Shown here one piece after another: positions 37,371-43,377 of a stretch of 64,000 nt of DNA. The stretch lies in NCBI RefSeq assembly GCF_046105845.1, contig NZ_CP151004.1. The stretch is one strand, 5' to 3'. Below the pieces are notes generated by a model. That model was not told the origin of the DNA. It did not search any database and was given only the letters and a program-made list of their open reading frames with translations. Position 1 is the stretch's first letter, and every line of letters begins with the position of its first letter. Origin of the DNA: Escherichia coli (GTDB lineage: Bacteria > Pseudomonadota > Gammaproteobacteria > Enterobacterales > Enterobacteriaceae). Made by a program: the position numbers and the translations under genes.

Positions 37371-37689
37371 AAATATTTATCTACTAAAACAACAAAAGGG
37401 GAGAGGCGTAAGTATCTCCCTTTTTGTATTTTTTGAGTGTAAATAATACAGTGTTATTGATAATTTGAATAAATTATTGGTTTTCATTTTTAATTTATAT
37501 GGTTTTATTCCTAAAAATAAAATTCTGTCTTTTTCTGAGCTAGTAACTTGTTGATTTTTCCGTATATTTAATATGATTCAAAAATTAATATTTAGTAAAA
37601 ACAATTTTATTTTTTGACGCCATTTGTATAATCTGCGCCCGTTGTATAAACAACATCAAGCATATTTATCTATATAAATGGAGTTATAA

Positions 37690-38214
37690 ATGAAAAAGGT
37701 TCTGTTTGCCTTATCTGCGCTTGCGCTGACCTCTACTTCCGTATTCGCAGCTGATGCGGGCGACGGTACTATCAAATTTACCGGTGAGATTGTTGATGCC
37801 GCTTGTGTTGTGTCTCCGGACTCTCAAAAACAAGAAGTTGTTCTGGGCCAGGTGAACAAGTCTGTTTTTACTGCTATTGGTGATAAATCCACAGCAACGC
37901 CGTTCAAAATCAAACTGGAAAACTGTGATATCTCCTCTTTAAAAAATGTGGAAATCAGCTTTAACGGCGTTGGCGCTACAGGGAACGAGAAACTGGTTTC
38001 TGTAAGCACTGAACCAGGTGCTGCAAGTGGCGTAGGTATCGGTATTTATGATAACACCAATACCCTGGTTGACCTGAATTCTGGTAAATCTGCTACCGTT
38101 CTGAAAGAAGGCCAGACCGTTCTCTACTTCACCGCTAACTATGTCGCTACCGCCGATTCAGTAAGCACCGGTTACGGTAACGCCGAAGTCGACTTCAACC
38201 TGACTTACAATTAA
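37690..38214 (+). CDS. lpfA: Long polar fimbriae major subunit (type 1-like fimbrial subunit)
   Basis: 174-aa ORF MKKVLFALSALALTSTSVFAADAGDGTIKFTGEIVDAACVV...; signal peptide, conserved Cys pair, C-terminal ...GYGNAEVDFNLTYN; very similar to Salmonella/EHEC LpfA as remembered. Confidence 0.85.
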   Translation: MKKVLFALSALALTSTSVFAADAGDGTIKFTGEIVDAACVVSPDSQKQEVVLGQVNKSVFTAIGDKSTATPFKIKLENCDISSLKNVEISFNGVGATGNEKLVSVSTEPGAASGVGIGIYDNTNTLVDLNSGKSATVLKEGQTVLYFTANYVATADSVSTGYGNAEVDFNLTYN

Positions 38215-38297
38215 TCGCCCCTAACAGGACGATCATCTCTCAATGGCAACAGAGACTCTGTTGCCATTATTCACACCAATGACTCAGGGACCGAATC

Positions 38298-38984
38298 ATG
38301 AAACGTATTAGCCTTGCCGTGCTGGCACTTTTAATGACCGCACAACAGTGTTTTGCTGGTGGCGTAGCCTTAAGTACGACGCGTGTTATTTATGATGGCG
38401 GCAAGAAAGAAGCGTCGCTGACCGTTGAAAATCATAATAAAAATGAAGAGTTTTTGATCCAGTCATGGATTGATGACGTGAATGGTAATAAAAAAACGCC
38501 GTTCATTATTACACCGCCATTATTCAAACTTGATCCCGATAAAAATAACGTCTTACGTATCGTCAATATTGAAGATACCTTACCTAAAGATCGTGAATCC
38601 GTTTACTGGATTAATGTAAAAGCGATTCCTGCGAAAAGTGCTGAAAATGAAAATAAAAACGTCTTACAGATAGCCGTTCGCACCCGTCTGAAGTTGTTCT
38701 ATCGTCCAAAAGGTTTGCCGGGAAGCAACCTCGAGGCAATGAAACAGTTACGTTTCCAGCGTCAAAATAACCAAATTGTGGTTAACAACGACTCCGCTTA
38801 TAACCTGACCTTTAATCAGTTTTCCGTTAATGGACAAAAGATTGAACGGGCGGGAATGGTTCTCGCAAAAGGGACGTTAAACATTAACCTTCCAGCCGGT
38901 ACAGGCAACGCGAACGAAGTGAAATACAGCATTATTAATGATTTCGGTGTTGCCGGCGAAATGCTGATGAAGCCGATCAACTGA
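38298..38984 (+). CDS. lpfB: Periplasmic fimbrial chaperone (PapD-like)
   Basis: 228-aa ORF MKRISLAVLALLMTAQQCFAGGVALSTTRVIYDGG... Confidence 0.85.
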   Translation: MKRISLAVLALLMTAQQCFAGGVALSTTRVIYDGGKKEASLTVENHNKNEEFLIQSWIDDVNGNKKTPFIITPPLFKLDPDKNNVLRIVNIEDTLPKDRESVYWINVKAIPAKSAENENKNVLQIAVRTRLKLFYRPKGLPGSNLEAMKQLRFQRQNNQIVVNNDSAYNLTFNQFSVNGQKIERAGMVLAKGTLNINLPAGTGNANEVKYSIINDFGVAGEMLMKPIN

Positions 38985-39007
38985 CCCTTTTACAAGGCGC
39001 TTTTACT

Positions 39008-42599: not shown

Positions 42600-42604
42600 C
42601 AGTC

Positions 42605-43126
42605 ATGAAGCGAACAATACTTGCGTTATGCCTGCTGCCTCTTTCCTTATCGACAATGGCGCTTACGGATTTGGGAGCGAAGGGTGATTTAAAATTCACT
42701 TTGCAGATCCGCCAGGGTGCCTGTGAACTGGTAAAAGACAATATTGAGGTAGACCTGGGAAGAGCGGTACTTAAACAGCCTGTAAGAATCGGAACAGAAC
42801 TTAATCCCACTACTTTTTCCATCGGTCTGAAAAACTGTAGCGAAGTTGTCAGGGCTTACGTCACCATGAATGGTACGCCCAATACGGACGATCCAAATCT
42901 TTTTGCGCTGGATGCGGGTGGCGCTACGGGCGTTGGGCTGAAAATCAAAACCGCTGCGGGAGTACAACAGTTCCCGGAAAATACGACACCGACGCCGATT
43001 GAGTTCGCGATTAACAGTGATGGCTCACATCAATTGAACTATATCGCCAGCTACGTGCCAATTCGCGCTGATGCAACCATTGGTCGCGCGGATGCAACGG
43101 TCGATTTTACCGTTCAGTACGAATAA
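42605..43126 (+). CDS. lpfE: Fimbrial minor subunit
   Basis: 173-aa ORF MKRTILALCLLPLSLSTMALTDLGAKG... with the fimbrial C-terminal motif (..ATVDFTVQYE). Confidence 0.8.
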   Translation: MKRTILALCLLPLSLSTMALTDLGAKGDLKFTLQIRQGACELVKDNIEVDLGRAVLKQPVRIGTELNPTTFSIGLKNCSEVVRAYVTMNGTPNTDDPNLFALDAGGATGVGLKIKTAAGVQQFPENTTPTPIEFAINSDGSHQLNYIASYVPIRADATIGRADATVDFTVQYE

Positions 43127-43135
43127 TTTCGCTTC

Positions 43136-43162
43136 ACAGGGCTAGTTAACTAGCCCTTTTTA
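43136..43162 (+). terminator. Rho-independent terminator after lpfE
   Basis: agggctagtt aac tagccct followed by ttttt. Confidence 0.8.
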
Positions 43163-43377
43163 CTGCTTTGTGTAACACTAAAGTCCTTTTTCAAACTTGC
43201 ATTTTTGTAAATTTGTGCTTCATGCACACTCTTTCCCCACACTTTTTCCCTTTGCTGTGGTCTACTTAATCGCGCGTGTAGATTTTACTTATCTGACTAC
43301 CTCCGCACTTTTCCCCTGCCGGGCCTGAAAAGCCGTTAAGCAGGGTGTTATCACCTGTTTGTCCAGGGTTTGTTTGC

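Follow-up and report, generated by a model that had tools for sequence, protein, structure and literature searches.

An lpf1-type chaperone-usher fimbrial operon between yhjX and eptB in an Escherichia coli genome

We analyzed a 64,000-nucleotide stretch of an Escherichia coli genome (contig NZ_CP151004.1, referred to here as the window), in which five open reading frames (ORFs), all on the + strand, lie between the genes yhjX and eptB (yhjW). In order, they encode a major fimbrial subunit (lpfA, 37690..38214, 174 amino acids (aa)), a PapD-like periplasmic chaperone (lpfB, 38298..38984, 228 aa), an outer-membrane usher (lpfC, 39008..41539, 843 aa, uninterrupted), a large adhesin-like subunit (lpfD, 41550..42599, 349 aa) and a small minor subunit (lpfE, 42605..43126, 173 aa). 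The intergenic gaps from lpfA to lpfE are 83, 23, 10 and 5 nt, a spacing of the kind expected of a single operon. All five products pass the NCBI curated (NCBIfam) equivalog models for LpfA to LpfE (NF011756, NF011755, NF011754, NF011753 and NF011752, respectively) over full length, with E-values of 5e-87 to 0 and scores of 328.8, 467.6, 1821.8, 476 and 290.4 bits against cut-offs of 221, 360, 1271, 412 and 169. For each of the five proteins, the next-best fimbrial models (Fim, Bcf, Sti and others) score far under their own curated cut-offs. None of the five ORFs contains a frameshift or an internal stop, and their lengths match those of annotated homologues. The classical hallmarks of chaperone-usher systems are present, namely chaperone motifs, usher domains, and cysteine pairs and N-terminal strands in the subunits, and the operon occupies the yhjX-eptB position of lpf1 as opposed to the glmS-pstS position of lpf2. 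We are highly confident that 37365..43138 carries an intact lpf1-type lpfABCDE operon of the O26/O104/LF82-like lineage, encoding a gamma-type chaperone-usher fimbria akin to type 1 pili. An earlier note, made from the letters of the window alone, had proposed a five-gene operon of this type and a known family rather than a new system. The equivalog models bear out both proposals, as do public proteins already carrying these names for the second, and a better match to another chaperone-usher clade, which the note had named as the outcome that would overturn it, did not occur, the Lpf models being far ahead.

The individual proteins resemble the components of type 1-like pili. LpfA has a Cys39/Cys79 pair and a C-terminus ending in ...LTYN, and its best PDB relatives are FimA-type pilins (best E-value 5.2e-25). 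The closest structures to LpfB are SfaE and FimC (E-values of about 1e-45); Arg29 and Lys108 of the LpfB precursor lie within two conserved motifs, TRVIY and NVKAIP, that align with those of SfaE, and we take them to correspond to the cleft residues Arg8 and Lys112 of FimC/PapD. Residues 20-841 of LpfC, nearly its full length, align to FimD structures with an E-value of about 1e-210. On a locus that is 100% identical to that of the window (locus L007, GCA_044249515.1), Pfam domains PapD_N/C are recorded on the chaperone and PapC_N, Usher and PapC_C on the usher.

LpfD has the architecture of a two-domain tip adhesin, with an N-terminal receptor-binding domain of ~200 residues followed by a C-terminal pilin domain that begins near TVTQGCEL. 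The mechanical ORF starts at 41520; the true start is likely the ATG at 41550, giving 349 aa, because a Shine-Dalgarno sequence (AAGGA) lies 7 nt before it and the lpfC stop 10 nt before it. Annotated LpfD homologues are 349-351 aa long, most of them 349 aa. Residues 23-349 match the crystallized LpfD of strain LF82 (PDB 5AFO) with an E-value of 4.6e-140 and 65% identity, and the alignment, when inspected, places most of the differences in the N-terminal (receptor-binding) half. LpfE is likely a FimF-like adaptor that comes next after LpfD, and its best PDB relatives include FimF (E-value of about 2e-7). The C-terminal tail of the 5AFO chain (residues 337-356) corresponds to the N-terminal extension of LpfE, with 15/20 positions, by our count, identical to LpfE of the window. 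The crystallized LpfD was therefore self-complemented by an LpfE donor strand, which is consistent with LpfE adjoining the tip adhesin.

The site is empty in K-12 and in ECA64, whose left flank is closer to that of the window than any other (99.4% identity); in both, yhjX and eptB are adjacent, with 323 bp between them. Alignment of the window to K-12 ends at 37364 (after ...GAGGCACAT) and resumes at 43139 (hairpin GGGCTAGTTAACTAGCCC). Together with the junction alignments, this delimits an accessory lpf1 segment at 37365..43138 (+ strand, 5,774 bp), in place of which K-12 has an unrelated 96 bp. The gene yhjX, matched by a model for L-lactate/oxalate-formate-type major facilitator superfamily (MFS) transporters, ends at 37370 and the ATG of eptB lies at 43378, so that 37371..43377 is the whole intergenic space. 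From the junction alignment, the islet supplies the last codon and stop of yhjX (ATT TAG, 37365..37370, + strand): YhjX has 400 aa ending in ...REAHI here versus 402 aa ending in ...REAHGSL in K-12, and annotated yhjX is 1203 bp long in lpf-positive strains versus 1209 bp in K-12 and ECA64. The window is collinear with 65 kb of K-12, and the lpf segment is the only large difference in it; the others are two small indels, the duplication of an ldr/rdl unit in the window, and an IS150 element that only K-12 has. GC content is 46.1% in the islet versus 51.2% in the rest of the window. Annotated lpf operons lie at the same site in O157, O26, JNE151685, M1/5 and AF22, and E. whittamii and Salmonella likewise have lpf at this locus.

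Several statements of the earlier note can be judged against this map. The adjacency of yhjX and eptB in K-12, without lpf, is borne out by the K-12 annotation; O157:H7 does carry lpf here, as lpfA1-B-C(pseudogene)-D-E (O-island 141 (OI-141) according to PMC5357955), and in Salmonella lpfABCDE holds the syntenic position, flanked by yhjY and eptB. The description of the operon as the main strain-specific adhesin content of the window also stands. The note had drawn the islet at 37371..43377; accessory DNA is indeed present there, but the K-12 alignment moves its limits to 37365-43138. Likewise, the clean terminator reported after lpfE exists as a hairpin and T-run (43138..43162, + strand), but it is the core terminator that follows yhjX in K-12 and not islet DNA. 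Its stem (43139-43156) carries a compensatory C>T / G>A double change, from GGGCCAGTTAACTGGCCC to GGGCTAGTTAACTAGCCC, which is found in 5/5 fetched loci of this lpfE lineage and in no other fetched locus.

The space between yhjX and lpfA (37371..37689, + strand) is a putative lpf regulatory region of 319 bp with a GC content of 23.8%, in keeping with the roughly 320 bp of extremely AT-rich DNA noticed earlier. At 37392..37432 (+ strand) it holds a hairpin followed by a T-run, an islet-borne intrinsic terminator for yhjX, with a folding energy of -21 kcal/mol (z = -6.5; 0/200 shuffles fold as well). A hairpin lies at the matching position in JNE151685, O26 and O157, a call made by eye on the junction alignment and not by folding. 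A TATAAT at 37627-37632 is common to the aligned JNE151685, O26 and O157 sequences, and a GGAG at 37680-37683 is the ribosome-binding site of lpfA. Any promoter within 37371-37689 is assigned by inference. The upstream region contains no GATC site and thus gives no hint of pap-like phase variation through Dam/Lrp. A second hairpin, a 12-bp stem-loop at 38242..38268 (+ strand; fold z = -3.3), occupies the spacer between lpfA and lpfB. Single-sequence folds place spacer hairpins of 10-14 bp and differing sequence at the same place in O157, M1/5, E. whittamii and Salmonella. The stem-loop of the window is likely an attenuator or an mRNA-stabilizing hairpin that sets an excess of LpfA over the downstream products. 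In Salmonella, the hairpin between lpfA and lpfB is followed by a U-run and is terminator-like.

Comparison of the operons at the yhjX-eptB site separates two deep lpf lineages in E. coli, which we name clade I and clade II. Clade I comprises O157 (lpfA1-3), GDSC2227PM (taken as lpfA1-5 on a perfect fit to the lpfA1-5 reverse primer), M1/5 (lpfA1-1-like) and E. whittamii. Clade II comprises O26:H11 (lpfA1-2, with a perfect primer fit of 0 + 0 mismatches), JNE151685, AF22 and the window; AF22 represents the LF82 type, because its LpfD is 100% identical to 5AFO. Proteins LpfA to LpfE of the window are 69%, 64%, 69%, 39% and 43% identical to those of O157, versus 91.4%, 90.2% and 88.5% to LpfA of O26, JNE151685 and AF22, respectively. 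For the same three strains, identity is 97-98% in LpfB, 96-99% in LpfC and 88-89% in LpfE. LpfD is 98.6% identical to that of JNE151685 and 62-65% identical to those of O26, AF22 and the L006 type, and it is a minority type. The remaining clade II alleles are 95-98% identical to one another in LpfA and 92-97% in LpfE, a tight cluster that makes LpfA and LpfE of the window clade II outliers.

Which LpfA variant the window carries had been left to a comparison with O157, Salmonella and the described allele sets; that comparison puts lpfA1-2 nearest and the OI-141 type at a distance. The primers of the Torres 2009 typing scheme were taken second-hand from Table S1 of PMC5962669 and fit the control strains; for the lpfA1-3/1-5 forward primer, the versions in that table and in PMC3417533 differ by two bases. 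In silico, the lpfA1-2 primers give the expected 273-bp product on the window with 2 and 3 mismatches, making lpfA1-2 the nearest type, and LpfA of the window falls outside the tight lpfA1-2-like cluster of O26, JNE151685 and AF22. Types lpfA1-1, lpfA1-3, lpfA1-5 and lpfA2-1 were rejected, their primer pairs totaling 8 to 16 mismatches; at the protein level, identities of 73.6% to M1/5, 69.0% to O157 and 69.5% to GDSC2227PM likewise exclude lpfA1-1, lpfA1-3 and lpfA1-5. LpfA is 72-73% identical to that of Salmonella, and no LpfA match labeled with another species comes closer than the clade II alleles of E. coli. Judged by sequence, the allele of the window is a divergent member of the lpfA1-2-like lineage and not the O157 OI-141 type.

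The locus is hypervariable, and recombination has made a mosaic of the operon: its lpfA, lpfE and distal regulatory DNA represent a rare type, its lpfB and lpfC the common one and its lpfD a minority one. In 150-nt windows, identity to JNE151685 is ~59-75% in the distal regulatory DNA, 91-97% in lpfA, 93-99% in lpfB and most of lpfC, 98-100% from the 3′ part of lpfC through lpfD, and 85-93% in lpfE. The upstream region is itself divided. Its distal 192 bp (37371-37562) are ~60% identical to every other lineage, against a mean of 52% and a maximum of 57% for shuffles, and its proximal 127 bp (37563-37689) are 87-92% conserved within clade II. One further locus (L008) encodes identical LpfA, LpfB, LpfD and LpfE proteins, yet parts of its lpfC are only 91-96% identical to the window. 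The right flank (43139-46200) is 99.1-99.5% identical to carriers of this lpfE and about 97.3% identical to all others, and the left flank (30000-37364) is nearest to that of lpf-negative ECA64, which suggests a recombination tract covering the islet plus eptB. Elsewhere at this locus, M1/5 has a clade I, lpfA1-1-like lpfA, yet its 127-bp proximal promoter is 87% identical to the clade II promoter of the window, a further sign of mosaicism.

The prevalence of the operon was assessed in 5,426 complete E. coli genomes. Some lpfA is present at the yhjX-eptB site in 1,198 of them, at 90-95% identity in 697 and at 60-80% in 501, and at least 80% of the operon is covered by megablast in 696. The lpfA and lpfE types of the window are absent from the sample, where the best matches reach 92.7% and 88.1% nucleotide identity, respectively. 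The best whole-operon match is that of JNE151685 (95.5% nucleotide identity), the closest complete RefSeq genome. All five proteins are nevertheless present verbatim in public protein data under the names LpfA to LpfE [Escherichia coli]. Over 16.2 kb, the locus in GCA_044249515.1 matches the window at 100% identity, and identical LpfA was found at the same site in the five places listed, among 24 contigs carrying identical LpfA. The operon is therefore a known system, already deposited and correctly named, with nothing new in kind; it is distinctive only in its rare LpfA/LpfE/distal-regulatory type and its minority LpfD type.

From the proteins and their homologues, we infer how such a fimbria would be made and used. 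LpfA, LpfD and LpfE would be exported to the periplasm, where the chaperone LpfB would cap them by donor-strand complementation and hand them to the usher LpfC. The usher would assemble the fiber tip first, starting with the adhesin LpfD and the adaptor LpfE and continuing with a long LpfA polymer, by donor-strand exchange. The transcript would begin upstream of lpfA, in the region of 23.8% GC that H-NS probably silences, as documented for O157 lpf1. The stem-loop after lpfA probably holds LpfA in excess, and the core hairpin before the eptB promoter region would terminate the lpf transcript. By homology with other strains, the fimbria may function in binding to M-cells of Peyer's patches or to extracellular matrix. 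A role of enterohemorrhagic E. coli (EHEC) Lpf in interaction with M-cells and Peyer's patches has been found by experiment (PMC5357955), and a role of this kind is attributed to the Lpf of adherent-invasive E. coli (AIEC) and Salmonella in work cited there.

Three observations weigh against an operon that is expressed and acts in this manner. Lpf fibers are hard to visualize (PMC5357955). A scan of the region upstream of lpfA for sigma-70 patterns gave 7 matches versus 10.2 expected, nothing over chance. Additionally, the distal regulatory DNA shows essentially no relationship to its counterpart in the O157 and O26 operons that have been studied, so that regulation may differ. One possible explanation is that the operon is intact but cryptic, permanently silenced by H-NS for want of a Ler-like antisilencer and playing no role in adhesion in practice. 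The extreme AT-richness of the upstream region is consistent with H-NS silencing and Ler antisilencing, and PMC3219716 cites H-NS silencing of O157 lpf1 and a requirement for Ler to counter H-NS. No gene of the LEE island (locus of enterocyte effacement) is visible within the 64-kb window, and the promoter scan points the same way. On the other hand, five ORFs that are intact and full-length in several lineages with this allele argue for selection, and lpf is induced in EHEC O157:H7 under simulated stomach and small-intestine conditions (PMC5357955). We consider permanent silencing unlikely, though its probability is not negligible.

Taken jointly, the rare combination of lpfA, lpfE and distal regulatory DNA, which is absent from the 5,426 complete genomes and present in a few dozen drafts, could represent an unnamed lpf1 sub-lineage that is mistyped or missed by PCR, is regulated outside the H-NS/Ler paradigm, and carries a minority LpfD whose receptor-binding domain recognizes a different host ligand. 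We put this forward tentatively, as a reading somewhat less likely than not.

There are two possible accounts of how the operon came to lie at this site. The sequence comparisons favor an old polymorphic locus, reshuffled by homologous recombination and lost in K-12-like strains, over a recent insertion, with the direction of change not proven. Salmonella has lpfABCDE between yhjY and eptB, without yhjX, and E. whittamii has yhjX-lpf-eptB, while three lpf lineages are about equidistant, at 70-75% identity in LpfC and 38-48% in LpfD. A recent horizontal insertion into a K-12-like empty site, which would make this a true mobile islet instead of an old exchanged locus, would account for the lack of lpf in K-12 and in ECA64, in spite of the latter having the most similar left flank, and for an islet GC content below that of the flanks. 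However, neither the ORF list nor the annotated homologous loci contain an integrase gene (no search was made for flanking direct repeats), and on the left the junction falls within yhjX and not at a tRNA gene. The junctions also look alike, by inspection of the alignments, in both deep E. coli clades, and E. whittamii and Salmonella have lpf at the syntenic locus too. Furthermore, LpfC at ~70-75% between lineages is more diverged than the core protein EptB at 88.8% between E. coli and Salmonella, and the flank identities suggest ordinary recombination tracts extending into eptB. A recent insertion is thus distinctly improbable. The 96-bp K-12 spacer offers no help, as its best match to lpf scores 22.3 bits versus a mean of 22.7 for shuffled sequences, and the direction of gain or loss cannot be read from a scar. 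Of the earlier note's wording that the operon is 'inserted', the empty site in K-12 holds and the insertion itself is not established, since the junctions look alike across the E. coli lineages examined and E. whittamii and Salmonella also carry lpf there; a site occupied since ancient times and then subject to loss or allelic replacement is no less likely than a new insertion.

Two observations on the sequences used in this comparison are set apart here. EptB of the E. whittamii assembly (14825-16516 of its locus) is only 79.4% identical to EptB of the window, versus 88.8% for Salmonella, which is unexpected for a congeneric species. In Salmonella enterica GCA_010866425.1, lpfC seems to be frameshifted near its 5′ end (10320-10572), ~90 codons in, and is called as 765 aa.

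That the genes belong to another gamma-type fimbria (type 1/Fim, Bcf, Sti or Stg) mislabeled as Lpf, or to a decaying remnant, is barely credible: the subunits, chaperone and usher do match Fim-family models too (e.g. FimD with an E-value of 2.9e-234), but none of these matches reaches its curated cut-off where all Lpf models are passed, the genes run A-B-C-D-E without FimI/FimG equivalents at the Lpf position, and a remnant is contradicted by frames free of frameshifts and internal stops, so that both another fimbrial family and a pseudogenized remnant are excluded.

Other features of the window were noted alongside the operon. Downstream of eptB, a tRNA gene at 45161-45234 corresponds to an annotated tRNA-Pro at the equivalent K-12 position. 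It is followed by an RtT element (45272-45405) and, on the - strand, a naRNA4/REP-type (repetitive extragenic palindromic) element (45499-45580). A 108-nt unit is repeated here at ~45219-45326 and ~45387-45494, and strains differ in how many RtT elements are annotated, with one in K-12 and O26 and two in JNE151685. At ~27502-27542, the window lacks the IS150 found between glyS and hokA in K-12, so the hokA locus is not associated with an insertion sequence (IS) in this strain. A tandem duplication of ~485 bp at 53395-54286 gives two ldr/rdl units (LDR, a type I toxin-antitoxin system) versus the single ldrD of K-12, with full-length Rfam matches to rdlD at 53496-53561 and 53979-54044 on the - strand.

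In EHEC, AIEC and Salmonella, Lpf is an established colonization factor. For adhesin typing, and as a view of how recombination diversifies the locus, it is useful to know that this strain has an intact clade II operon whose LpfA and LpfE are of a rare type and whose LpfD is of a minority type, and PCR schemes with lpfA1-2 primers may under-detect this allele. Beyond strain typing, the operon has little import and opens no new biological question.

Among named systems, type 1 fimbriae (fimAICDFGH) share the machinery class, and the window has a chaperone like FimC, an usher like FimD and subunits like FimA, FimF and FimH. They differ in locus, and the window has five genes without FimI and FimG and no invertible fimS-type switch that could be seen. 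Salmonella enterica lpfABCDE has the same gene order, a syntenic place beside eptB and a hairpin after lpfA, but no yhjX, and its proteins are 72% (LpfA), 69% (LpfB), 74.5% (LpfC), 46% (LpfD) and 51% (LpfE) identical to those of the window. The lpf1 operon of EHEC O157:H7 (lpfA1-3) is closer in setting, with the same site, gene order, AT-rich upstream region (23.6% GC) and hairpin after lpfA. Its proteins nonetheless belong to a deeply different lineage, with the LpfA to LpfE identities given above, and lpfC, intact in the window, is a pseudogene in the O157 strain examined.

The clade II operons are the nearest relatives. The LF82-type Lpf of AIEC, represented by AF22, is the same clade II operon with a two-domain LpfD and a conserved LpfE donor strand, and differs in LpfD (65% identity). 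O26:H11 strain 11368 (lpfA1-2) has the same site and gene order, junctions that are the same by inspection, and high identity in LpfB (97.8%), LpfC (99.2%) and the proximal promoter (87%), but only 91.4% in LpfA, 87.9% in LpfE and 65% in LpfD, with the distal 192 bp at ~59%, near the shuffle level. The lpfA1-2-type lpf1 is also found in enteroaggregative/Shiga toxin-producing E. coli (EAEC/STEC) O104:H4 and in 55989 (PMC4636846). Closest overall is JNE151685, which shares the minority LpfD type and from which the window has diverged in lpfA, lpfE and the distal regulatory region.

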